Below are positions 5,448 through 39,088 of a DNA stretch of 41,117 bases, one piece after another. The notes beneath the pieces were generated by a model, which saw nothing but the letters and a program-made list of their open reading frames with translations, did not search any database and was not told the DNA's origin. The DNA lies in IMG/VR virus record IMGVR_UViG_3300043602_000024, positions 1 through 41,117 of that record. One strand, given 5' to 3'. Numbering within the stretch: the first letter of the stretch is position 1; the number at the start of each line of letters is the position of its first letter. Made by a program: the position numbers and the translations under genes. Source of the DNA: a virus. Taxonomy: Duplodnaviria > Caudoviricetes.

Positions 5448-6115
5448 ATCTTACGACCGGCGTCTCAGCCGAACTGGTTCACGCGGTTTGTGGGGTCCAT
5501 CGCACGCTCCAGCGGCCAACCTCGCAGGATACGCCATCGCAGTTTACCGGCATGGATACCGAGGCGACGTGCGGCTTGAGAGAAGGTCTCGCCGTCAGGC
5601 AGGCGTCGATTACGGCAGGTGTTATTGGTCTGCTGGTGTATCGTCGCCCATCTCACATTGCCAGGCGCATAGTGACCATCGTTATCGATGCGGTCAAGGC
5701 TGTGACGAGCGGACGGTCTTGGGCCGACATAGGCCAAGAACGCAGGGAAGTCATTCAGCCATTCAGCAGCCATCGTGATGCCGCGTTGGCCGTATCGGTA
5801 GTAATGCGCGTTCTTAAGGTTGTAACAGCGTCCTTTTGCGGCCTTCCACGCCCAATGTTCAGCGCTTCCAGAACGGCCGTGGGTTCTCGCGTTGTTGCCT
5901 CGTGTTTCGTCTCGAAGGCAGCCGCAACTCTTCAGTTTGCCAGCCCTCACCGCCCATGCCTGACTGATCGCGTCTTGCCCGCAGTCGCACTGACAGACCC
6001 ATTTGAGCGGGTGCGTCTGAGGCACGTATCCGACGACCGTCAAGCGATTGAATCGTTGCCCGAGATAATCAGTCTTAAGATTGGATCGCATAACTCGATT
6101 GGTATTCTAGTATGA
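5444..6115 (+). CDS. Antisense 'bridge' ORF over the HNH gene; product may be non-functional
   Basis: GTGA overlap with the upstream stop and ATGA overlap with the tailspike start. Begins MNLTTGV, matching tailspike MNLQTGV. Confidence 0.45.
   Translation: MNLTTGVSAELVHAVCGVHRTLQRPTSQDTPSQFTGMDTEATCGLREGLAVRQASITAGVIGLLVYRRPSHIARRIVTIVIDAVKAVTSGRSWADIGQERREVIQPFSSHRDAALAVSVVMRVLKVVTASFCGLPRPMFSASRTAVGSRVVASCFVSKAAATLQFASPHRPCLTDRVLPAVALTDPFERVRLRHVSDDRQAIESLPEIISLKIGSHNSIGILV
5465..6091 (-). CDS. HNH-type homing endonuclease
   Basis: GQRFNRLTV, WVCQCDCG, KSCGC, YGQRGI and SLDRIDNDGHYAPGNVRWAT motifs, with a C-terminal HTH. Confidence 0.92.
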   Translation of the reverse strand: MRSNLKTDYLGQRFNRLTVVGYVPQTHPLKWVCQCDCGQDAISQAWAVRAGKLKSCGCLRDETRGNNARTHGRSGSAEHWAWKAAKGRCYNLKNAHYYRYGQRGITMAAEWLNDFPAFLAYVGPRPSARHSLDRIDNDGHYAPGNVRWATIHQQTNNTCRNRRLPDGETFSQAARRLGIHAGKLRWRILRGWPLERAMDPTNRVNQFG

Positions 6116-7629
6116 ATCTTCAAACGGGCGTTGGGTTCATCGACCCCTATGTGCAGTTTCTCGCGGCCGATGGGTCGCCAGTATCTCTCGGCACGCTTGA
6201 GATTTTCCTGGCGAACACGACGACGCACCTGACGACCTACTCTGATCAGGGGCTCTCGTCGGCGAACCAGAACCCGTTAACGCTCGATGCCGGGGGCGGT
6301 TGCACGCTCTATTTCGCGCCAACGAACGTCACGACGACCGAGGGCATCTCAGCTAAATACACCCTGCGTGATTCTGTCGGGGCCACGATTCGCACGGTCG
6401 ATTTCGTGACCTTGCCAGTCGCCACGGCGGCGGGCAACTTGACGACCGCGGTGATTGGCTACGGCGCGATTACCACGGTGACGATTGCTGGCGGGTCGAT
6501 TACCCCGGTGTTCAATCGGCATCTGGTCGCTCCGGAAGGTGGCTCAGCGGACAACCTGGACACGATTGCGATCTCGGGACTCCCTGACGGGGCTCCGCTG
6601 GTGATCAGCAACTCGAGCGGGTCGGCGGCGATTACCGTCCGGTCAGGGATTGGCAATATCAGCCTCGTTGGGGCGGCGTCCTGCATCCTGGCGTCGACGA
6701 CAGATCATCTCGTCGTGATGCGCCGGTCGAGCCAGTGGGAGGAAGTGAGTCGGCAGTTAGCGGCGTCGATTGGGACGACGGTGGACAATACCCAAGCCTC
6801 GGGGCGGTTGACGTTGACCTCGGGGTCTCCGATTACCACGACGGATGTGACGGCGGCGACGACGGTCTACTACTCGCCGTTTATCGGCAATACGATTGCC
6901 CTGTATGACGGGGTGAGCGTCTGGAACGTCCTGTCCTTCTCTGAACTCTCGATTGCGGTGCCGGCGACGACCGCAACGCCCTACGACGTGTTTGCTTACA
7001 ACAACAGCGGCGTGGCCGCGCTCGAGCTCACGGCGTGGACGAACACGACGACGAGGGCGACCGGGCTGACCCGTCAAAACGGCGTGGCGGTGAAGTCTGG
7101 AGCAACCACGAGACGGTATCTCGGCTCGTTCTGCACCACGGGCGTCTCTGGGCAGACGGAAGACTCGCTCGTGAAGCGGTATGTCTGGAACGTCGTCAAC
7201 AAGGCCGCGAGACCGCTCTTCAGGAACGATTCAACGGACACCTGGGCGTATAGCACGGCGACCTACCGGCAGGCCAACGGCGCGGCGGCGAACCAGGTCG
7301 AGACGATGATCGGGATTGCTCAAGATGCCGTGTCGCTCGACCTCTATGCGCTCGTTTCCAGCTCGTCGGCGACACAGTTGGTCTATGTGGCGATTGGGCA
7401 GAACTCGACGACGACGCCGGCCACGGGCGGGATTGGCTATGCCAGCGGGACCTCTGGGGCGGCGGATTTCGTGATGCCGCACGCGCATCTGCGGACCATT
7501 CCTGCGGTCGGGATTACGGCGTGGGTCTGGTTGGAACGTGGGTCAGGAACGGGGACAGAAACATGGCAAGGGGATGGGGGAGCGGCGACGTTGATTCAGT
7601 CGGGGCTCACCGGGATTGTGATGGGGTGA
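6112..7629 (+). CDS. Tailspike/tail fibre with N-terminal particle-binding domain
   Basis: QFLAADGSPV...TTYSDQGLSSANQNPLTLDAGG N-terminus typical of P22-like podovirus spikes; T/S/G-rich beta domains. Confidence 0.85.
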   Translation: MNLQTGVGFIDPYVQFLAADGSPVSLGTLEIFLANTTTHLTTYSDQGLSSANQNPLTLDAGGGCTLYFAPTNVTTTEGISAKYTLRDSVGATIRTVDFVTLPVATAAGNLTTAVIGYGAITTVTIAGGSITPVFNRHLVAPEGGSADNLDTIAISGLPDGAPLVISNSSGSAAITVRSGIGNISLVGAASCILASTTDHLVVMRRSSQWEEVSRQLAASIGTTVDNTQASGRLTLTSGSPITTTDVTAATTVYYSPFIGNTIALYDGVSVWNVLSFSELSIAVPATTATPYDVFAYNNSGVAALELTAWTNTTTRATGLTRQNGVAVKSGATTRRYLGSFCTTGVSGQTEDSLVKRYVWNVVNKAARPLFRNDSTDTWAYSTATYRQANGAAANQVETMIGIAQDAVSLDLYALVSSSSATQLVYVAIGQNSTTTPATGGIGYASGTSGAADFVMPHAHLRTIPAVGITAWVWLERGSGTGTETWQGDGGAATLIQSGLTGIVMG

Positions 7630-16799: not shown

Positions 16800-17430
16800 G
16801 TCTCAAACATATCTACTGACGGTTGATGACCCCATGTCGATGTGGTTGACGTTTAAGGTGTGCAAAAAATGTCACCGTGTTTTGCAGTTATTCCATTTCC
16901 ATGTGGCTAAATTGGGCCTGTATGGTCGCGTGGCGGTGTGTCGTGAGTGCCGTAAAAACAACGAGCATGAGCGCCAGTTAGCGAATATTCGCTCTCGGAA
17001 GTGGTCCGATGCGAATCCTGACCGTGTGAGAAAAAATGCGCGAGAGTGGCGACGTTCTCGTGCGGCTGAGTTCAATGCAAAGCGGCGGGCTGTCTATGTG
17101 CCAGGTTCGATGACTCGGTGGGCACGAGAGCATCCTGAGCGTCGTAGGGAATACAGGAAAACCAACGCGATTAAACGTCGGGCCTGCAAGTTAGGTTCTG
17201 TGGTGACACACACCACGCTGGAATGGCATGACCTGCTTGAGAAATACGAACATCGGTGTTTAGCGTGCGGTGCGAGTGGCCGACTATCTAGAGATCACGT
17301 GGTTCCGCTGACTCGTGGCGGTAGTAACGGCATCGACAATATTCAGCCGCTTTGCGGCCGATGCAATTCAAAGAAGGGAGTTCAAACGATTGACTACCGA
17401 CCTACGGACGATCAAGTTAGGCGGGTTTGA
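16792..17430 (+). CDS. HNH homing endonuclease
   Basis: CKKC/CREC finger; CLACG...DHVVPLTRGGSNGIDNIQPLCGRCNSKK; lower GC than surroundings. Start uncertain (16792 GTG or 16834 ATG). Confidence 0.92.
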   Translation: MSRSQTYLLTVDDPMSMWLTFKVCKKCHRVLQLFHFHVAKLGLYGRVAVCRECRKNNEHERQLANIRSRKWSDANPDRVRKNAREWRRSRAAEFNAKRRAVYVPGSMTRWAREHPERRREYRKTNAIKRRACKLGSVVTHTTLEWHDLLEKYEHRCLACGASGRLSRDHVVPLTRGGSNGIDNIQPLCGRCNSKKGVQTIDYRPTDDQVRRV

Positions 17431-18304
17431 ACTTACCCAGACGGGTGTTCAGATTCACGGCAAGCCTGAATGGGATGATTTTTGTGGCGCGTTTGATTTT
17501 GTTACCAAATCTCATCGTGCGTCTGGTTTTTGGCTGTGTGATCTGATCACATATGCCGATTCACGGCCAGAATGGTATGAATTGGCTGATTCAGTGATCG
17601 ACCACGAATACCTCACCGAAGCATCAATCCGACAATACCGTTACTTAGGAAAAGCTATTCCGCCCAATCAGCGGGTGGTTGGGATTGGGTTCGGCCATCA
17701 CGCCGAGGTCGCCTCTTTGCCTCAAGACCAGCGTGTGCAGTGGCTCGAGAAGGCCAAGACCGAGGGCTGGACGCAGCGGGAACTGCGGCAGCAGGTCAGG
17801 GTCTCAAAACAGGCCATGCTGATGTCGATGGAGCAGGAGCCGTCTGAGCGGTTCCGTGTGGTCGTCGTCGAGCCGTCCTGGGGGTCTACGACCGTGCAGG
17901 ACATCTGCGGCTTGCCGGTAGGCCCTAAGACCCTCGATGACGCCGTGCTCTTCCTGTGGGTCCCTACGAGCCGCCTCATGGCCGTGCCAGAGATTCTCGA
18001 GGCGTGGGGGTTCACCTATCAGACCTCATTCGTCTGGCATCAAGTCACCGAGATGAAGACCTCGTATCTCGCGGTGGCTCACGAGACCCTCGTGATTGCG
18101 ACCAAGGGCGTCTGCGAGCCGGTCAACTGCAGTCTCCACTCGGTGCAGACGTTTCGCCGGCATGGGGTGACTGGTCCTAAGCCCTCTGAGTTTCTCGACC
18201 TCGTGGAGAAGATGTATCCCGTCGGGCCTTATGCCTCAATCGGTGGCCTTGAAGGTCGGCTGGACTGGGCGCTGCACTCAATGGTCTCGTTTGCGGAGGG
18301 CTGA
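17390..18304 (+). CDS. LmbU-like DNA-binding domain fused to a degenerate MT-A70 methyltransferase fold
   Basis: FWLCDLI...FGHHAEVASLP...WLEKA...GWTQRELR (LmbU-like); DDAVLFLW, EAWGFTY and HE.LVIATKG (MT-A70); EPSW replaces DPPW. TTG start after GGGAG. Confidence 0.8.
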   Translation: MTTDLRTIKLGGFELTQTGVQIHGKPEWDDFCGAFDFVTKSHRASGFWLCDLITYADSRPEWYELADSVIDHEYLTEASIRQYRYLGKAIPPNQRVVGIGFGHHAEVASLPQDQRVQWLEKAKTEGWTQRELRQQVRVSKQAMLMSMEQEPSERFRVVVVEPSWGSTTVQDICGLPVGPKTLDDAVLFLWVPTSRLMAVPEILEAWGFTYQTSFVWHQVTEMKTSYLAVAHETLVIATKGVCEPVNCSLHSVQTFRRHGVTGPKPSEFLDLVEKMYPVGPYASIGGLEGRLDWALHSMVSFAEG

Positions 18305-22548: not shown

Positions 22549-24063
22549 ATGCCGCAAGGCCAGAGCTGGTTTGATCGGATCTTCAGTGCCCCACCCTCGT
22601 CGCAGGGCCTGCCGGCGTTGTCCCAGACGCCGCTCGAGCAGACCAATCCAGGCTTAGCGAAACTGCGAGACCTGATCGGCGGCTTTATAGGGTCTCAAGA
22701 CGCCTTGACGCCGACGAGCTCAGGCGCGACGTTGACCGGGGCGGCGATGGCGTCACTGATTCCCCTCGCCGGAGTGCTCAAGATGGGCCAAGGTGAACAA
22801 GCCGCGGTGAAGGGCATCAAGGCGTATCACGGCTCTCCCCATGATTTCGACAAGTTCTCCATGCAGAAGATTGGGACCGGGGAAGGGGCGCAAGCCTACG
22901 GGCATGGGCTGTATTTCGCTGAAAATCCGCAAGTGGCCGCTGACTATCGTAAAAGTCTCTCCAGTCCGTCGGCGGATAATCCGATATGGCGGTTACGTGG
23001 TGAGCCAGTTGCTCCAGGAACTGACCAGTATCAGCTTGCGGCTGCGTTAGAGTTAGCGGGTCGACAAAAGAAGGGTGAATCAATCGAAGAGTTTTTACGA
23101 CGTGGTGCTGATCGTCTTGAGGACCACGGGGCGTTTGTTGATCGGACGTATGGCGGTGACCCTGGGAATATGTATCGGGCTCACGCCGCTAGGTTGCGTG
23201 CCGTTGATCCTAAAGACTTAACGCAGCATCAACCCGGCAAGACCTACGAAGTCGCCATCAAGGCCGACCCTGACGAGTTCCTGCACTGGGATAAACCGAT
23301 TGCCGATCATCCCGTCGCGCAGAAGATCGTGGCTGAGTCGAAGCGTAGCGGCCTTGGATATACCCGGAGTCCAAGCGGTTACGGCGATGACAATGAGTTC
23401 AAGAGTCTCGTCAAGTGGGAGCCAGACGCAAAGAGCGACTGGAATACGATTCAGGATCTACGGACGAAGTGGCTGACCCTTAACAAGACCTATCAAACTT
23501 CCGGCTACAAGAAAGAGCATCAAGCGGCGTCAGAGGCTGCGTATGAGGCGTATTCTACATTTCTGGACCGTCAACAGCAGACGACCGGAAAGTGGGTATT
23601 AAGGCCAGACGCAACCGGGGCAGACTTCTATAAGACCCTTGTGGCGTCTCACGGCATGGACCCTCAGGCTGCGACCGAGATGCTTCGTAAGGCTGGCATC
23701 AAGGGCATCAAGTATCTCGACCAAGGGAGCCGGTCAGCATACGCGCCTAATATCCAAGTGCTAAAGGATCGGGTCACTGATCGTCAAGGTGCGTTGAAGG
23801 TATTCCAGGACCGTCTAGCGAAGCCGTCGTCTGAGCGTATGCGCCTCTCTTTAGAGGCCGACGCCGCGAAGGCGAAGCGCGATCTCGAGTCGGCTCAGTT
23901 GCATTTAGAAGTGGCTGAACGTCAACCGCCAGTGACCCATAACTATGTCGTCTTTGACGATCAGCTTATCGACATCATGAAGAAGTATGGCGTGGCCCTC
24001 CCGGTCGCCGCGACGATCAAGGCGTGGCGAGAGAGTCAACAACCGAAGGCGAAAGGCTCCTAG
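22549..24063 (+). CDS. ART-PolyVal-like ADP-ribosyltransferase-fold protein
   Basis: AYHGSPHDFDKF, IGTGEGAQAYGHGLYFAE, YEV, GIKGIKYLD and NYVVFDD motifs. Confidence 0.8.
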   Translation: MPQGQSWFDRIFSAPPSSQGLPALSQTPLEQTNPGLAKLRDLIGGFIGSQDALTPTSSGATLTGAAMASLIPLAGVLKMGQGEQAAVKGIKAYHGSPHDFDKFSMQKIGTGEGAQAYGHGLYFAENPQVAADYRKSLSSPSADNPIWRLRGEPVAPGTDQYQLAAALELAGRQKKGESIEEFLRRGADRLEDHGAFVDRTYGGDPGNMYRAHAARLRAVDPKDLTQHQPGKTYEVAIKADPDEFLHWDKPIADHPVAQKIVAESKRSGLGYTRSPSGYGDDNEFKSLVKWEPDAKSDWNTIQDLRTKWLTLNKTYQTSGYKKEHQAASEAAYEAYSTFLDRQQQTTGKWVLRPDATGADFYKTLVASHGMDPQAATEMLRKAGIKGIKYLDQGSRSAYAPNIQVLKDRVTDRQGALKVFQDRLAKPSSERMRLSLEADAAKAKRDLESAQLHLEVAERQPPVTHNYVVFDDQLIDIMKKYGVALPVAATIKAWRESQQPKAKGS

Positions 24064-32359: not shown

Positions 32360-32956
32360 ATGGCGATTACCAACACAACTCTCTCAGCGGCCTGCGGGCT
32401 GAACGACACGACCATCGCGGTCACGGCGACGACGGGCTTTGCGGTCGGCAACATCATTCGCGTGGATAGCGAATTCATGGTGCAGACGGCGGCTGCGGTC
32501 GGTCTCGTGGTCCCGGTGCGTCGAGGCGGTCAGAACGGCACGGATCAGTTCGCGCACCCGATTCTCGCCTCTGTGGCGACCGGGTTGGCGTCTGACCAGC
32601 CGTATCCAACACCTGGGGCCTTGAACAACCCGCCCTCGTTGACACGGCAGATTGTGTCCTACGGTGCCTCTGGGGCGATTACGCCTCCGGTGGTGGACAC
32701 GATTGTGATGCTCAACAAGGCGACCGCGGGTGTAATGACCCTCGAGGCCCCGTCTGGCCTCGTGGACGGCACGATGGTCATCATCTACAGCAACACTGCG
32801 GCGGCGCACACGGTCACGTATACGGCGGGGTTCCACGGGGACACCACGTCGTCGGACGTGGCGACGTTTGCGGCGACGGCCGGCAACTCGATGACGATCA
32901 TGGCATCTCGCGGCGTCTGGGGCGTCATCTGCACCTCTGGCGTCACGATTGCGTAA
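32360..32956 (+). CDS. Head decoration/cement protein
   Basis: Follows the coat gene; TTLSAA...IRVDSEFM...RG..GT...H domain plus a second beta domain. Confidence 0.7.
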   Translation: MAITNTTLSAACGLNDTTIAVTATTGFAVGNIIRVDSEFMVQTAAAVGLVVPVRRGGQNGTDQFAHPILASVATGLASDQPYPTPGALNNPPSLTRQIVSYGASGAITPPVVDTIVMLNKATAGVMTLEAPSGLVDGTMVIIYSNTAAAHTVTYTAGFHGDTTSSDVATFAATAGNSMTIMASRGVWGVICTSGVTIA

Positions 32957-33057: not shown

Positions 33058-33390
33058 ATGAGTGAAGACATCTATCCGCGCATGGTGTATCAGCCGTTTG
33101 AGAACGACCGCGGTCAAGTTGCCGTGAGGTATCGCGTGGTGGACAACCGAGCGGCCTATGACGCCCTTGGTGGCGGGTGGTATCCCGGTCCTGACCTCGC
33201 CCTCAATGCCTACGACAGGCAGCAGGAGGCGATTGGAGAGGCCGCGGCACACCGGGCCTACGTGGACCGGAACATGAGTGCGACGGCGCTCCTCGAGGCG
33301 GCAGCGGTCGAGGACAGCACGCGGGTCCATGTGGCGGAGATCCCTGAGACGAAGCGCCGGCCGGGTCGGCCGCGAAAGGTGGTCGCGTAA
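33058..33390 (+). CDS. Hypothetical head-region protein with AT-hook-like tail
   Basis: YPRMVY...GW N-terminus and KRRPGRPRK C-terminus. Confidence 0.75.
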   Translation: MSEDIYPRMVYQPFENDRGQVAVRYRVVDNRAAYDALGGGWYPGPDLALNAYDRQQEAIGEAAAHRAYVDRNMSATALLEAAAVEDSTRVHVAEIPETKRRPGRPRKVVA

Positions 33391-33641
33391 TGTCGATGAA
33401 CACGACCTATAACGTCTGGAACGATGTCGTCCCGAGTGACACGGTGGACATTGCGACGACTCCGAAGCTAACCGATGCGGTCTATGTCGGTGAAGGCGGG
33501 GATCTCGTGGCCGTGGCACAGAACGGGCGGGCGACGACCTTTGTCGGGGTGCCGACAGGGATGGTGTTGCCGGTGATTATCAAGCGGGTCAACAGCACGG
33601 ATACGTCCGCGGCGTCCATTGTGGCGCTGAACGCGGTCTAG
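33390..33641 (+). CDS. Head spike base protein (RcGTA Rcc01079-like)
   Basis: VVPSDTVD...AVYVGEGGDL...TFVGVPTG.VLPV..KRV..T.TSAASIVAL pattern. Confidence 0.8.
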   Translation: MSMNTTYNVWNDVVPSDTVDIATTPKLTDAVYVGEGGDLVAVAQNGRATTFVGVPTGMVLPVIIKRVNSTDTSAASIVALNAV

Positions 33642-33650
33642 GGGGTTCCT

Positions 33651-34055
33651 GTGGCAGGCTTCGTAACGAATGTGGGCTCTTCGGGGCTCCTCTCAGGCGG
33701 CACGATTACATGGGCGTCGGACACGATCATGGCGCGTCTCACGGCGTCGTCGTTTACGCCCGATCAAGACAACACGTCGATGACCGGGTATACCGCCATC
33801 GGCACGGATGTTACGTTGGGCGCGAAGCAGAAGGCGACCAACACGACCGACAACCGTATTCAGTTCACGAATACCGCGGACCTCGTATGGACGGCGGTGG
33901 CTTCTGGGACGGTGCGGTGGGTCACGATTTACAAGTTTGTGACCAATGACGAGGGCTCGACACCGATTGCCATCATCGACATCACGTCGTGTGTGGCGAA
34001 CGGGTCGGACATCACGTTGCCGGCGCAAACGGCACTGTTCTACTCGCAGCAGTAG
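33651..34055 (+). CDS. Fibre-associated connector protein A
   Basis: DTIMARL, TLGAK, IYK and STPIAIID motifs; paralogue of 36607-37095. Confidence 0.7.
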   Translation: MAGFVTNVGSSGLLSGGTITWASDTIMARLTASSFTPDQDNTSMTGYTAIGTDVTLGAKQKATNTTDNRIQFTNTADLVWTAVASGTVRWVTIYKFVTNDEGSTPIAIIDITSCVANGSDITLPAQTALFYSQQ

Positions 34056-34061
34056 GCGAAG

Positions 34062-35255
34062 ATGGCGAGCTCACCAAAGTTCTACGACCGCGTATTGATG
34101 TCGTCCACGACGACAGGGACGGGCACGCTCACGCTCGGTTCAGCGATTACCGGCTACCAAGCATGGTCAGTGCTCGGCAACGGCAACAGCGCCTATTACT
34201 ACATCGAGGGCGTAGATGGCTCTGGCGTCCCGTCTGGTGAGTGGGAAGTCGGGATTGGCACGTATACGACCTCTGGAACTACCCTCAGTCGTGATTCGAT
34301 CCTTGCGTCCAGCAATAGCGGTTCGGTAGTCAGCCTCTCGGCAGGGACCAAGCGTGTCGCGCTGATTGGGGCTCCTGCGGCGGTCTCGACGACCGACATT
34401 AGCGATATGGGCGGTCGGTTGACGCTGACGACAGGCGTCCCGGTGACGACCTCTGACGTGGCGACGGCGACGACCCTCTACTACACCCCGTATAAGCACA
34501 ACCGGGTCGAACTGTGGAACGGCTCTGGATGGGTGCGGTATACGTTCTCTGAGATTTCGCTGGTCACGCCGAGTCTGACGAATGCCAAACCGTATGACAT
34601 CTGGCTCTACGACAATGCCGGGACGCTGACGCTGGAGGCGCTTGTCTGGACCGATGCCTCGACTCGGGCGACGGCGATTGTTCAGCAGGATGGCGTCTGG
34701 TGTAAGACCGGGGCATTAACTCGTCGGCTCGTCGGGACGATTTACCCGAGTGCGACGGACACGATGACCGATACGCTAGCTTTTCGCGGCGTGTCGAACG
34801 TCGATAACGCGGTGCCACGGCCGATCTACCTCAATCCTGGCTACGCGAACGACAACACGACGACGAGCTATACGAACAACTCGACGACGTGGGGTCTGGC
34901 GAACGGCGGAACTGGTGCGACGGCGACCTACGTCCTGACGCTCCCCTCTGGATTTGCCGTCACCTATTCGTGCATCGCGCAAGGCACCGCGACACAGCCG
35001 GTCTTTGGCATTGGGGATGGGTCGACGTCACAGGCGGTCGTCTTGGGGCTCTGTCCGCTGAACGCGGCTGGTCAAGCCTATTCGCAGGCGATTACATGGA
35101 GCGCGTCCAAAGCGGCCGGCGCCTCGACGATCGTCATGCTAATTGCGAGCATCGTCAACGCGCAGACCGCGACGTTTTATGCGGACCTGGGGCGGTTCGG
35201 TGGAGCCGCAGCGGATCAGGCGGGCACGACACTCACAGCGACGGTGCAGGGATAG
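34062..35255 (+). CDS. Fibre protein 1
   Basis: DRV..SSTTTGTGTLTL...WEVGIGTY...TLSR N-domain plus a domain shared with the tailspike. Confidence 0.8.
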   Translation: MASSPKFYDRVLMSSTTTGTGTLTLGSAITGYQAWSVLGNGNSAYYYIEGVDGSGVPSGEWEVGIGTYTTSGTTLSRDSILASSNSGSVVSLSAGTKRVALIGAPAAVSTTDISDMGGRLTLTTGVPVTTSDVATATTLYYTPYKHNRVELWNGSGWVRYTFSEISLVTPSLTNAKPYDIWLYDNAGTLTLEALVWTDASTRATAIVQQDGVWCKTGALTRRLVGTIYPSATDTMTDTLAFRGVSNVDNAVPRPIYLNPGYANDNTTTSYTNNSTTWGLANGGTGATATYVLTLPSGFAVTYSCIAQGTATQPVFGIGDGSTSQAVVLGLCPLNAAGQAYSQAITWSASKAAGASTIVMLIASIVNAQTATFYADLGRFGGAAADQAGTTLTATVQG

Positions 35256-35258
35256 CTG

Positions 35259-36602
35259 ATGCCGACTGTGGTCAGCACCCCGATTTACAATCTGGTCAAA
35301 GAGACCTCGACGACGACGGGCACCGGGACGATTACGGTCGCCGGAGCCGTCACCGGGTATGCGGCCTTCTCGGTCGTTGGGACTGGGAACCGCTGCACGA
35401 TCTGCATCCGTGCGGTCAATGGGTCAGGGGTGCCGACTGGCCAGTGGGAGATTTGCCGCAGCGTCTATACGCTGAGCGGGACGACCCTAACTCGTGGACA
35501 ACTCGTCGGGTCGAGCACGGGGAGTCGCATTAGCTTCTCAGCCGGGACCAAAGAAGTCTTTATCGTGGCTGATGCGGCGACCGTGCAGCCGCGCACATGG
35601 GATTTCGTGTTGGACTTCGACGCGGACCCGACCTACACCAACGACAACTGTGCGGCGTTGCAACTCGCCGTCAACACGATTACCGCGCAGGGTGGCGGGA
35701 CGCTCTACAGTCCTCCTGGTCACTACAAGTTCTCTGCCGCCCCTCAGAACGCTGGTACCGACAACGCGCAGGTCGTGTTGCCACAGGTTAATGCGTCTGG
35801 GAGCCAAGTCTCTATTTGCATCATTGGGGCGGTGCCTGCCCCGTCGCAGTTCTTCTTCACCGGGACGAATCCTCCGCCCTCAACGGGCTACACCGTCTGG
35901 GAAACGACCCTGACAGGTCAGAGTGGAACGGCGAGTTTCATCGGTGGCAAGGCGAACACGAACAACCCGAACAACCAGAACGGGCTCTCAATCAGGTTTG
36001 CGAACCTGATCATTGCGATGCCCGCGAACCCGACGTTTACCTGCATCGACATCAGCCATCAGTTCGGGTCGGTCGAGATGTTCCAGGACGTGTTCATCTA
36101 CGCCGGGACAGCGGACATTACGCAGGTCACTGAGCCGACGAACGCCAACAACTACGGCATCAAGATGCCGGGGAACAACGGGAGTGCTCAAGCCTGGGTT
36201 AACGGCCTGACGATCTTCGGGCAGCACGTTGGGTGCTTGTGGGGGGAGAACATCTACTCTGCGGGGCTGGAGATTTGGGCGTGTTTCGCGGCGATTGAGA
36301 CGGTGTTCACGTATCACCCGTGGTGCCACTTCCATATCGGCATTGCCTGGTGTCCCTATGGGATTACTGGCGGGTCGGGTGGGGGCGGGACGACCTACGG
36401 CAAGATTTATATGCTCGACATCGAGCACGCGAACAACCAGGGCCAGTCGTGGCAGAACTCGATTGCGGACATCTACGACCCGGCGAACTACCTGCATCTG
36501 GATATTGCGGCGTGGCTGGCGGTATCGAGCGCGGTCGGGAATGACCACACATTGAATTTGTCCTCTGGTTGCGCGCACGTGACGCACACCGAGCTGGTCT
36601 AG
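35259..36602 (+). CDS. Fibre protein 2 with pectate-lyase-like beta-helix (depolymerase or adhesin)
   Basis: Same TTTGTGT N-domain; DFDADPT..NDNCAALQ.A...GGGTLYSPPGHY beta-helix cap. Confidence 0.82.
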   Translation: MPTVVSTPIYNLVKETSTTTGTGTITVAGAVTGYAAFSVVGTGNRCTICIRAVNGSGVPTGQWEICRSVYTLSGTTLTRGQLVGSSTGSRISFSAGTKEVFIVADAATVQPRTWDFVLDFDADPTYTNDNCAALQLAVNTITAQGGGTLYSPPGHYKFSAAPQNAGTDNAQVVLPQVNASGSQVSICIIGAVPAPSQFFFTGTNPPPSTGYTVWETTLTGQSGTASFIGGKANTNNPNNQNGLSIRFANLIIAMPANPTFTCIDISHQFGSVEMFQDVFIYAGTADITQVTEPTNANNYGIKMPGNNGSAQAWVNGLTIFGQHVGCLWGENIYSAGLEIWACFAAIETVFTYHPWCHFHIGIAWCPYGITGGSGGGGTTYGKIYMLDIEHANNQGQSWQNSIADIYDPANYLHLDIAAWLAVSSAVGNDHTLNLSSGCAHVTHTELV

Positions 36603-36606
36603 TGGC

Positions 36607-37095
36607 ATGTTGGTTGCGGATGCGCCGGTCAGTGGAGCCTCAGTCAGTAGCGGCGAGAGTGAGGGCTTTGAGTCCGTGATTACGACCTTTGTCTTTAACG
36701 TCGGGATGGCCGGATTGACCTCTGGCGGGTCTGTGACGTGGGGCACTGGGTCCGGTGGCGATACCATCAAGGCGCGTCTGGTTGAAGCCGCGGTGACGCC
36801 TGGGGTCAATGCGACCTCGATGACGGGACTTACCGCGGTCGGGACGGATGCGACCCTCTCGGGCAAGTCGAAGTCGACGGATACCTCAACCAATCAAGTT
36901 GCCTATGATGCGACAGACCCGGTGTATACGAGCCTGACCGGCAACGATGTTGGGTCGCTGGTGATCTACAAGTTCGATACGGACGATGCCGGGTCGACAC
37001 CGTTGGCGTGTCTGGCGTTGCCGGTATTTACGCCTGACGGGACCACCCAAACGGTGGTCTTTGCGTCCACGGGCGCGTTCTACACCCAACAATGA
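36607..37095 (+). CDS. Fibre-associated connector protein B with N-terminal peptide
   Basis: Paralogue of 33651-34055 (both end FY(S/T)QQ) with an extra MLVADAPVSGASVS extension. Confidence 0.72.
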   Translation: MLVADAPVSGASVSSGESEGFESVITTFVFNVGMAGLTSGGSVTWGTGSGGDTIKARLVEAAVTPGVNATSMTGLTAVGTDATLSGKSKSTDTSTNQVAYDATDPVYTSLTGNDVGSLVIYKFDTDDAGSTPLACLALPVFTPDGTTQTVVFASTGAFYTQQ

Positions 37096-37709
37096 TTAGC
37101 GGGGCTCCGCTCTCATCGACGCCGCTGAGTGCGGCTCTTGCGCTGTCGAGCGGTGGCAACCAGACTCTGACGCCGACCGGGCCGGCCATCTTTACGTGGG
37201 TGGCTCCCAACGCGACGTTGGTGCTCTCGGGGAATCAGTCGCTCGTCCCGACCGGGCCGGCGATCTTCACCTGGGTGGCTCCAGATACGTCGCTGGTCAA
37301 TGGCGGCTCGATTGATGCGCCCTCGGCGGTCTCGACGTGGACGGCTCCGACGACCTCGCTCTCGCCGTCAGGGTCAGCGACGTTGGTGCCCACGGGGCCA
37401 GCGGTGTTTACGTGGGTCGTCCCGCGGCGACATCTGCGTCGGTCGGTGGAGCCCGGTGGTGGTGGGAGTAATTGGAAGGGCCTGCCGTTCAATCGGTTTG
37501 CTGATGTCGTGCTGAGTGACACTGTGAACATGGAGATGTGCCTCGCCCTCTACGTGGGGGAAGGTGGCGACGTGGCCGCGGTCGAGCAGGATGGGACGGT
37601 GAGGCTCTTCGTTGGGGTGCCGACGGGGAGTATCCTGACCGTCAAGGCTAAGCGGGTGAATAACACGGATACCTCGGCAGCGTCGATTGTGGCGTTGTAT
37701 CGAGACTAA
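37092..37709 (+). CDS. Adaptor: N-peptide + PTGPAIFTW repeats + spike-base domain
   Basis: C-terminal ~73 aa align with 33390-33641 (YVGEGGD, FVGVPTG, KRVN.TDTSAASIVAL). Confidence 0.8.
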   Translation: MISGAPLSSTPLSAALALSSGGNQTLTPTGPAIFTWVAPNATLVLSGNQSLVPTGPAIFTWVAPDTSLVNGGSIDAPSAVSTWTAPTTSLSPSGSATLVPTGPAVFTWVVPRRHLRRSVEPGGGGSNWKGLPFNRFADVVLSDTVNMEMCLALYVGEGGDVAAVEQDGTVRLFVGVPTGSILTVKAKRVNNTDTSAASIVALYRD

Positions 37710-37920
37710 ATGATCAGCGGGAGTCCGCTTAGCGGCACGCCGATTAGTGCGGCGCTAACGGCGGCGAGTGGGGGGAACCAGAGTCTTACGCCGACCGGGC
37801 CAGCGATTTTTACCTGGACGGTCCCGAATCAGACGCTGGTGCAGAGTGGGGGTCCCCAGACGTTAGTGCCGACGGGACCAGCGATTTTTACCTGGGTGGC
37901 ACCGGATCAGACGCTGGTGC
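37161..37920 (+). repeat. ~20-aa repeat (Q/A)(T/S)L(T/V)PTGPA(I/V)FTW(V/T)(A/V)P
   Basis: Three clear copies and one degenerate copy in 37092-37709; two copies in 37710-38012. Confidence 0.9.
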
Positions 37921-38012
37921 AGACGGGCACGACGATATGGAACCGTCGGATGACGGAAGCGCCTGATCGGGTTGGGTCTCGGTCGTCGGATGCACGGAAA
38001 GTAGGGCTGTAA
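37710..38012 (+). CDS. Adaptor: N-peptide + PTGPAIFTW repeats + short basic tail
   Basis: First ~70 aa are paralogous to 37092-37709; TAATG coupling to the gp4-like gene. Confidence 0.75.
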   Translation: MISGSPLSGTPISAALTAASGGNQSLTPTGPAIFTWTVPNQTLVQSGGPQTLVPTGPAIFTWVAPDQTLVQTGTTIWNRRMTEAPDRVGSRSSDARKVGL

Positions 38013-39088
38013 TGGGTCAACCAGTCGAACGTTACAACACGACACAGCCACTGCCGTTTCTCCTCATTCTCTCGTCGGATCACATCACCGGGGCGACCGG
38101 GAAAACGCCGACGGTCACGATTTGCAAGACGGGCGGTGGGTTTGCCACGCCGGCCGGGGCGGTGACGGAGATTGCCTCGGGGTGGTATCAGGTGGCCGCG
38201 AATGCCGCGGATGCTAATACCCTCGGGCCGCTATTGCTCCATGCCACGGCGAGCGGGTGTGACCCTCGAGATGCCGAGTTCTCGGTGGTCAACTACAACC
38301 CGACCTCGGTCTTGCCGGTCTCGGTGCCGACGGATGCCATCGACGGCACGGTCACGGCGTTGGACCTCATCAACGGGGCGTTTGAGATTATCGGCGTGAA
38401 GTCGTTGGGGCAAGACCTCGAAGGGGCGATTGTCAGCGACGGGTTTCGACGCCTCAACAGCATGATCAACTCGTGGGGGACGCAGCCGCTCACCATGACG
38501 GCGTTCTCCCGAGAGGTCTTTGACATCACGGCGAGTCAGTCTGACTATACGGTCGGTCCTGGCGGTGATTGGGACACGGTGCGCCCGTTGGTGGTCGTTG
38601 GCGTCTCGCTGATCATGACCAACAGTTCGCCGTCGATTGAGATTCCGCTCTCGATGCTGACGCAGAACGCCTATGCGGCCATCGCGGTCAAGGACCTGAC
38701 CTCGACGCTGCCGACGCAGGCCTTCTGGAACCCGACCTATCCGCCGTCCGGGTCGTCAGTCGGACTCGGCACGATGAAGCTCTGGCCGAAGCCGACCGAC
38801 GGGGCCAATGACATTGCGCTCTATACGCAGGTCGCGGTGACGAGTTTCACGTCGCTGACGATGCCGACCGGGATGGCTCCTGGCTATCGGGAGGCGCTGG
38901 AATACAACCTGGCCTGCCGTTTGTGTGCGCCCTATGGGCGTCCTGTGCAGCCGGATGTGTTGGCCTATGCCAAGTCCACGCTGGCGACGGTGAAGCGGCA
39001 GAACACGCGACTGATGGACCTGATGACAGACTCCGGACTGACGCCGGATTCCCGTCAAGGCACCTTTAACATCCTGGTGGGTCCGTGA
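38012..39088 (+). CDS. Head-tail adaptor (P22 gp4-like) with an extra N-terminal beta domain
   Basis: TALDLINGAFEIIGV...LNSMINSW and PGYREALEYNLACRL..YG motifs, preceded by a ~110-aa DHITGATG...GWYQV domain. Confidence 0.82.
   Translation: MGQPVERYNTTQPLPFLLILSSDHITGATGKTPTVTICKTGGGFATPAGAVTEIASGWYQVAANAADANTLGPLLLHATASGCDPRDAEFSVVNYNPTSVLPVSVPTDAIDGTVTALDLINGAFEIIGVKSLGQDLEGAIVSDGFRRLNSMINSWGTQPLTMTAFSREVFDITASQSDYTVGPGGDWDTVRPLVVVGVSLIMTNSSPSIEIPLSMLTQNAYAAIAVKDLTSTLPTQAFWNPTYPPSGSSVGLGTMKLWPKPTDGANDIALYTQVAVTSFTSLTMPTGMAPGYREALEYNLACRLCAPYGRPVQPDVLAYAKSTLATVKRQNTRLMDLMTDSGLTPDSRQGTFNILVGP

Follow-up and report, generated by a model that had tools for sequence, protein, structure and literature searches.

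A rope-and-bead accessory cassette with candidate peptide docking sites in the genome of a P22-like podophage

We analyzed a stretch of phage DNA of 41,117 nucleotides (hereafter, the window; positions 1 to 41,117 of the IMG/VR record IMGVR_UViG_3300043602_000024), which is a whole circular phage genome with a 127-base terminal repeat, and focused on a cassette of eight tightly packed open reading frames (ORFs), all intact and on the + strand, that follows the coat gene and ends with the adaptor gene. The reading that we favor, with moderate confidence, is that the cassette encodes two short rope proteins which, together with a bead protein, build accessory stalks on the virion, each rope being anchored by its C-terminal end and holding a trimeric fibre by a short peptide at its N-terminus. 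The bead fold, the repeats, the peptide and tail motifs, and the fusion architectures are observed features of these genes. The binding steps that connect them are predicted.

In the assembly that we envisage, each rope unit would complete the open beta-sandwich of one bead monomer, as it does in solved relatives, such that rope A, with four units, would carry two bead dimers, and rope B, with two, would carry one. The three five-residue units of the N-terminal peptide would fill three equivalent pockets in the trimer of the fibre N-terminal domain (denoted here the TTTGTGT domain) of either fibre 1 or fibre 2. This step, suggested by co-occurrence and a weak fold match, would be a one-to-three version of the one-to-five head-fibre peptide of RcGTA. 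At the opposite end, the spike-base domain of rope A and the free spike base would assemble together into the pentamers at the vertices, and the arginine-rich tail of rope B would bind the extra N-terminal domain of the adaptor ring, as gene adjacency suggests, in the way that the GP4 rope interlocks with its collar. As the peptide is common to the two ropes, fibre 1 and fibre 2 could each occupy either site.

An earlier note on this sequence had described the adjacent genes as a docking kit that reuses a few parts, and had guessed that the shared peptides are ligands of the shared domains, yielding a branched tree of adhesins. Every duplication it listed was confirmed by BLASTP among the window proteins. 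At the level of pairs, the guess gained support largely as made; the case for the branched tree is weak. Misassembly was considered as the origin of the duplications and judged unlikely, given that the copies are 70-73% identical in DNA and relatives exist.

Beads, ropes and fibres of the cassette

The connector protein of about 134 amino acids is indeed present twice, as bead protein A (33651..34055, +; 134 amino acids) and bead protein B (36607..37095, +), which are 45% identical over 136 residues (E = 1e-31). The AlphaFold model of bead A (predicted local distance difference test score, pLDDT, 94.6) has the fold of GP4 fibre I protein gp80, of the whisker, and of a Bxb1 tail-tip subunit. 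Among 48,161 chains compared with VIA, the best alignment, over a discontinuous range, was to a T4-like baseplate chain (Z 12.2), and the closest small fold match was the Bxb1 tail-tip chain 9d93_Ra (105 residues, Z 10.7); GP4 gp80 (8jou_a; Z 9.5, root-mean-square deviation [rmsd] 2.6, 114 residues aligned) and the Sf14 neck chain, or whisker (9c39_K; Z 8.0), belong to the same group. Foldseek lists this fold group as well, with probabilities of 0.85-0.94 and E-values above 0.1, none of them significant, and the Atlas feature score is 0.85, with template modelling (TM) scores of 0.73-0.75 to clusters of PF23140, the Gp80 family. At the sequence level, bead A matches no Pfam family, PF23140 included, nothing in solved structures beyond one chance-level hit (E = 0.11), and nothing in annotated phages by tblastn. 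By its modelled fold, the connector is the bead of known chain-like fibres. In such fibres, as described in the sections covered of the structural papers cited here and below, dimers of the bead fold thread on a rope, a strand of which completes each open sandwich by beta-augmentation (PMC13730344, PMC12609058); this rope-in-groove binding is described for Bas63, GP4, and A1002, and the GP4 rope, in addition, interlocks with an immunoglobulin-like (Ig-like) collar (PMC13730344, PMC12609058). Since bead A has the published bead fold, the pairing of repeat and connector is the already published rope-and-bead design: the conjecture that the repeat is the ligand of the connector gains from this modelled fold identity, by analogy with solved fibres, and what it loses is its novelty.

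The two ropes differ in their ends. Rope A (37092..37709, +; 205 amino acids) consists of the N-terminal peptide (residues 1-13), four rope units (approximately residues 23-115), and a spike-base domain (residues 133-205), and is predicted from its sequence to be a head-vertex stalk; rope B (37710..38012, +; 100 amino acids), with the same peptide, two rope units, and an arginine-rich C-terminal tail, is the predicted neck stalk. Their N-terminal halves, which the earlier note called near-identical, are 74% identical over 74 residues (73% in DNA over 212 nucleotides), that is, similar rather than near-identical, whereas the difference between the C-terminal ends stands. The PTGPA[IV]FTW repeat, previously counted five to six times, occurs in three exact copies in rope A and two in rope B, and a profile detects six units, four and two, respectively, the extra one being degenerate, at a spacing of 22-26 residues. 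The cassette accordingly has one of the features of a GP4-type chain fibre, tandem units of 20-25 residues in a gene beside that of the bead, and the four and two repeats make for short stalks only, with room for three bead dimers in all. Two close cluster members of rope B keep the peptide, the repeats, and the tail. All loci with the tryptophan-type rope repeat also had a bead, and a rope-repeat profile seeded only from the window matched no other locus.

Both fibres look like receptor-binding proteins because their tips resemble, respectively, that of a tail fibre and those of beta-helix enzymes. In fibre 1 (34062..35255, +; 397 amino acids), the TTTGTGT domain (residues 1-110) is followed by a tip that is shared with the tail fibre encoded at 6112-7629 (38% identity over 221 residues). 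In fibre 2 (35259..36602, +; 447 amino acids), the tip starts like polysaccharide-acting beta-helix enzymes, with residues 106-202 matching mannuronan epimerase (E = 3e-5) and iota-carrageenase (E = 4e-4), and the protein also matches the tail spike family phrog_2234 (E = 3e-4). The N-terminal domains of the two fibres are 50% identical over 106 residues (E = 2e-18), which, given the unlike tip matches, agrees with the earlier description of one N-domain with two different tips. The 6112-7629 gene (+; 505 amino acids) lies outside the cassette, and the N-terminal part of its product, which differs from that of fibre 1, is presumably a P22-type head-binding domain; one type of tip is thus found on two docking systems.

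Candidate docking peptides and anchors

The N-terminal peptide of rope A (37092..37130, +) comprises three five-residue units with hydrophobic residues at positions 2, 7, and 12, small residues at 3, 8, and 13, and proline at 11, according to column counts in 21 relatives. Scored with a profile built from 31 peptides of other loci, it reaches 18.8 bits, a value attained by 2 of 23,342 background starts, and the rope B peptide reaches 20.7 bits, attained by 1. Thus, in two of the three genes for which the peptide had been claimed, it is strong; the third copy, in bead B, is weak and is discussed with the alternatives below.

The putative partner, the TTTGTGT domain, is widespread, with at least 4729 relatives among 6505 candidates of 218-695 amino acids. 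It corresponds to no Pfam family, has no sequence relative among solved structures, is covered by no PHROGs family in more than 7 of 115 members, and yields 3 partial matches in annotated phages by tblastn; Roseobacter phage CRP-6 and Methylophilales phage Venkman are among its carriers. Its model is all-beta (pLDDT 93.6), and the best VIA match is the N-terminal domain of a GP4 tail fibre, present in 18 chains of 8jov (Z 7.3, rmsd 3.3, 93 residues aligned). The Atlas clusters that include the domain carry Peptidase_S74 and YadA_head, both of which belong to trimers; together with the weak fold match, these partners suggest that the TTTGTGT domain itself forms a trimer.

Co-occurrence across phage genomes, which the earlier note had put forward as a check, shows that the N-terminal peptide tracks the TTTGTGT domain. 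In a set of 144 de-duplicated loci, a loose form of the peptide starts an ORF in 33 of the 67 loci with the domain, compared with 8 of the 77 with a bead only (minus-strand background, 6 and 7, respectively). The strict motif, counted in loci of at least 5 kb, is missing from all 40 loci that have a bead and no domain. It occurs in 24 of the 35 loci that have bead and domain together, and in 6 of the 17 where the domain was detected and a bead was not; the peptide-bearing genes of this last group include a 51-codon ORF. A reverse scan with the DNA pattern alone retrieved 120 loci (flanks available for 80) in 99 clusters; the pattern stands at an ORF start in 99 of 99 and is accompanied by the TTTGTGT domain in 50, or in 40 of the 46 that are flanked on each side by at least 2 kb. 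Relative to the peptide gene, the fibre gene is upstream in 24 cases and downstream in 26, and the domains fall into 12 clusters at 70%. Altogether, the pattern is estimated to occur in about 1500 IMG/VR stretches. A specificity control came from a scan of the same kind with a different, LLLESGD-type peptide: within 6 kb, the rope-type peptide is accompanied by the TTTGTGT domain in 35 of 43 cases and by a KISxL-type domain in 1, whereas the LLLESGD-type peptide is accompanied by the KISxL-type domain in 35 of 41 well-flanked loci and by the TTTGTGT domain in 0. The LLLESGD peptide and the KISxL N-domain are an apparent second pair, as judged from these counts. The proposal that the N-terminal peptide is a ligand of the fibre N-domain gains support from this pattern of co-occurrence and its controls.

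Related repeats were also noticed elsewhere. The LLLESGD-type triple repeat, seen beside another bead (L010:8421-10771, loci L406-L525), is often C-terminal, directly before the KISxL gene. A candidate third pair (L062:4883-5753, L078:279-2537) consists of fibre starts of the HxNFxYS / FxNNA type followed by genes that start with an MLG..[FL]GR peptide of five-residue spacing. In GP4 (L002:16645-20925), the presumed rope (AXG67774, assigned this role by position and repeats) starts with similar spacing and has no sequence match in solved structures.

At the C-terminal ends of the ropes, two anchors are predicted. The stand-alone head spike base (33390..33641, +; 83 amino acids; phrog_12296) is Rcc01079-like, as the earlier note held, being matched by phmmer to Rcc01079 itself (6tb9, E = 0.0014) and to the 'Spike Base Protein' 8cjz_h (E = 0.0006), and, by analogy, likely forms a pentamer on capsid vertices. 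The domain recurs at the C-terminus of rope A (59% identity over 74 residues, E = 3e-22), and on the simplest reading this copy would co-assemble with the free spike base on the vertices. A search of 1.84 billion representatives yielded 524 matches to rope A, and among the best 150 are five full-length relatives (38-48% identity), from five other 50% clusters, that keep the peptide, the four units including the shorter third one, and the spike base. Scans for their gene context gave one weak locus and then none, such that these five are known as proteins only. In P0331, a relative of rope A, the same chassis of rope and spike base bears the LLLESGD peptide instead. By eye, the matches also include proteins that fuse lectin-like domains to a C-terminal spike base. 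No Leu-Gly (LGLGL-type) head-fibre peptide of the RcGTA kind is present among the ORF starts of the window (ORFs of at least 60 codons). Fibres on capsid vertices are known as such from RcGTA and from phage 7-7-1, in the latter with proteins that the passages covered do not name (PMC12796354). Conservation of the peptide-rope-spike-base fusion in five clusters makes the previously suggested anchoring at both the vertices and the neck plausible.

The neck anchor would be the head-tail adaptor in the position of P22 gp4 (38012..39088, +; 358 amino acids; phrog_12985, phrog_637). As the earlier note had seen, it carries an extra domain: a mobile N-terminal domain of 100 amino acids (38012-38311) precedes the adaptor core, a match to phrog_12985 at residues 115-342. 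We found 224 relatives of this domain; of the 120 listed, 67 are joined to an adaptor core and the others to other tails or to further copies, and SU10_adaptor is found in 19 of 105. The RR...RVGSRS tail of rope B (37944..37985, +) is encoded directly before it, and this arrangement recurs. Within a set of 80 loci (61 clusters), 25 of the 58 genes that immediately precede the adaptor N-domain encode a terminal RR..R.G.R (21 have R.GSR); the motif ends 8 of the 780 remaining ORFs of these loci and 5 of 2062 ORFs from elsewhere. This adjacency, with its controls, argues for the proposed role of the tail as a ligand of the extra domain. This pair does not depend on the rope module and is mostly used with other cargo, given that the TTTGTGT domain occurs in 0 and a bead in 8 of the 61 clusters. 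For example, a 53-codon gene (L328:1717-1878) for what looks like a minimal adaptor, located directly before the same kind of fused adaptor and preceding two copies of the adaptor N-domain, combines an N-terminus of tryptophan-containing five-residue repeats with a tail nearly identical to that of rope B. The adaptor N-domain has no profile link to GP4 gp77 (0.1%), and the adaptor alignment has no sequence match in PDB. A further observation on rope ends is that 57 of the 65 peptide-bearing ropes examined (loci L206-L285) end in a tryptophan-containing tail, rather than a spike base or an arginine-rich tail, which suggests a third type of anchor.

Alternative readings and genome setting

The genome encodes the P22-type portal, scaffold, coat, adaptor, and head-closure proteins in order (PF16510, PF11651; phrog_156, phrog_8865, phrog_283, phrog_637, phrog_578), and is that of a complete P22-like podophage, with a short tail. 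Four close P22-like relatives (L326, L330, L359, L362) have the spike base and the fused adaptor at this place without the six intervening genes, while a sister genome (L003) keeps the spike base, the bead, and fibre 1 in identical order. The block is an accessory cassette.

Several readings compete with unbranched stalks that hold their fibres by the terminal peptide. Bead B, as encoded from its first ATG, is a 162-amino-acid protein with a 23-codon N-terminal extension that contains a degenerate version of the peptide; by displaying extra peptides along the ropes, it would let further fibres attach to the sides of the stalks, giving a tree of adhesins. The extension keeps the five-residue spacing (valine at 3, 8, and 13), its score exceeds that of 99.8% of background starts, its ATG follows the stop codon of fibre 2 by 4 bases, the 162-residue form is called in a public collection, and, as a lead only, A1002 uses two bead proteins, the longer of which has about 30 unresolved N-terminal residues (PMC13730344, in the part covered). 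However, the score is 2.9 bits, reached by 43 of 23,342 background starts, against 17-27 bits for six of seven rope peptides scored alongside, the other one having 5.3; valine replaces Leu/Phe, and the conserved proline is lost; among 253 distinct bead ORFs, this is the only one with a peptide-like extension; a start at the in-frame GTG at 36676, which GAGG precedes, would yield a bead of normal length (139 amino acids) that lacks the peptide; and the ropes have space for three dimers in total. We consider this branching rather improbable: the extension was probably derived from the 5' end of a rope gene, and the branch point may be a remnant. This comparison makes unlikely both the suggestion that connector B adds further fibre sites and the 'cellulosome-like branched tree', for which the ropes offer only four and two repeats. 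Membership in cellulosomes was rejected because no cassette protein has a cohesin or dockerin Pfam match, and the likeness is an analogy only; among the 105 relatives of the adaptor N-domain, one has a weak Cohesin match (E = 0.0022).

Under another reading, the peptide and the TTTGTGT domain are co-inherited without binding each other, the fibre docking on the bead, the collar, or the nozzle, and the peptide on the capsid or elsewhere. The GP4 fibre with the most similar N-domain does sit in the portal-tail complex, and beads are found in 39 of the 46 peptide loci, so that the linkage is largely three-way. This reading nevertheless appears unlikely in view of the absence of the peptide from all 40 bead loci that lack the domain and its presence in 6 of the 17 loci where the domain but no bead was detected, the swapping of peptide type together with domain type, and the fit of a threefold repeat to a trimer. 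The cassette could also be recently gained or decaying, with the rope A fusion and bead B being recombination products without a role on the head. Such a scenario would fit the four close relatives that lack the cassette here, the public gene call (P0328) that starts rope A at residue 147 and leaves a 59-residue piece, and the dispensability of the Bxb1 wing base gene (PMC12646305). We regard it as highly improbable, considering that the ORFs are all intact and packed, that five clusters, at 38-48% identity, preserve the whole fusion down to the shorter third unit, and that the sister genome has three of the genes in the same order.

The proposed assembly of anchored stalks with terminal trimeric fibres has its own difficulties. 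All peptide-domain pairings rest on co-occurrence or analogy. The motifs, including that of the tail, were written after the loci had been seen, and the KISxL profile was refined by iteration on these loci; the loci are not phylogenetically independent, so that P-values derived from them exaggerate the support, and most of those from the reverse scan look like one widespread aquatic module. The strict peptide is absent from 11 of the 35 loci with both bead and TTTGTGT domain. The tryptophan-type rope repeat is present in only 4 of 113 connector loci, two of which are probably one contig, and most close beads use other ropes or have none detected. The bead reaches a profile-profile probability of only 12% with gp80; the TTTGTGT domain attains Z 8, the bar of the tool, with no chain in the VIA search, and has no profile-profile link to the GP4 fibre N-domain (probability 0.2%). 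Near the anchors, the four relatives noted above have the fused adaptor without a tail gene directly upstream, as well as no cassette there, and binding of the spike base to the vertices of a P22-type coat is a prediction only.

More broadly, one can conceive of a general plug-and-socket code, in which short triple-repeat peptides would bind matching trimeric fibre N-domains and short C-terminal tails would bind matching anchor domains. Two or more orthogonal pairs of peptide and fibre, and three types of rope anchor, would recombine freely across thousands of genomes, such that, in this phage, two interchangeable adhesins would be displayed on the vertices and the neck, with bead B adding side branches. 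In this full form, the idea is possible, but we entertain it only tentatively.

Several other genes of the window deserve mention. The gene that follows the coat gene (32360-32956, +) encodes a two-domain protein of 198 amino acids, without a family match in Pfam or PHROGs, that is held at this position in related phages and is probably a capsid decoration protein. A protein of 504 amino acids (22549-24063, +) has a weak match, below the curated cut-off (E = 3e-6), to ART-PolyVal, an ADP-ribosyltransferase found in polyvalent proteins. By eye, an HNH-like ORF (5465-6091, -) lies on the opposite strand within the virion gene block, and an MT-A70-type methyltransferase match is located at 17315-18304 (+).

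Relation to known accessory fibres

Among known systems, the closest is fibre I of the Ralstonia podophage GP4 (8JOU, 8JOV; PMC13730344, PMC12609058), in which gp80 dimers are threaded on a separate rope, and the Ig-like fibre-tail adaptor gp77 holds this rope in place. GP4 and the window share the bead fold, a separately encoded rope beside the bead, and, directly behind the rope, a gene for a neck anchor (predicted to be one in the window), and the best fold match of the fibre N-domain is its GP4 counterpart (Z 7.3), without sequence similarity. GP4 has one rope with five dimers, whereas the window has two very short ropes, one of them ending in a spike-base domain; the GP4 anchor is a separate 15-mer, unlike the anchor domain fused to the adaptor here; and the passages covered describe no fibre at the N-terminus of the GP4 rope. 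The collar whiskers of Bas63 and Sf14 (PMC12609058) and the A1002 fibre (PMC13730344) likewise consist of bead dimers threaded on a rope, as proposed here, with two dimers per rope in Bas63 and two bead paralogues in A1002. In these phages, the rope is part of a collar or nozzle protein, in contrast to the separate rope genes of the window, and the sections covered describe neither a terminal peptide for a trimeric fibre nor a version on the head vertex.

The RcGTA proteins Rcc01079 and Rcc01080 (PMC7296036) offer a different parallel, namely, a homologue of the spike base and a repetitive N-terminal peptide that fills equivalent pockets of a homo-oligomer: one Leu-Gly repeat of a separate fibre chain fills five spike-base pockets. 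The window differs from RcGTA in that no Leu-Gly peptide was found, the stalk is fused to a second copy of the spike base, and the repeat is threefold and would point away from the capsid. The tail wing of Bxb1 (base gp30, arm gp31, brush gp33; PMC12646305) is a dispensable accessory chain of base, arm, and brush, located at a siphophage tail tip, unlike the head and neck sites predicted here; chain Ra, the closest small match of the bead (Z 10.7), comes from the Bxb1 tail tip.

Thus, the repeat-connector, or rope-and-bead, step is already known, being the core of GP4-type chain fibres. Three elements appear to be new: a triple-repeat plug onto which trimeric fibres would dock, the RxGSR tail together with the domain predicted to anchor it, and the fusion of a rope to a spike base. 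None of the three, a rope N-peptide bound by a fibre trimer included, was found described in our literature searches, which covered few subscription journals, and the structural work on GP4, VP1, and Bxb1 may already show part of these elements. In the sections covered, the solved chain-like fibres (GP4, VP1, A1002, Bas63, Sf14) leave the free end of the rope open, and their authors suggest that the beads bind the host. The genomic pattern seen here suggests that a trimeric receptor-binding protein, encoded separately, is likely attached to the rope end by means of a 13-residue peptide. If this pairing is true, it provides a function for an unannotated trio of genes that is very common in aquatic and soil phages, and explains the swapping of receptor-binding tips.

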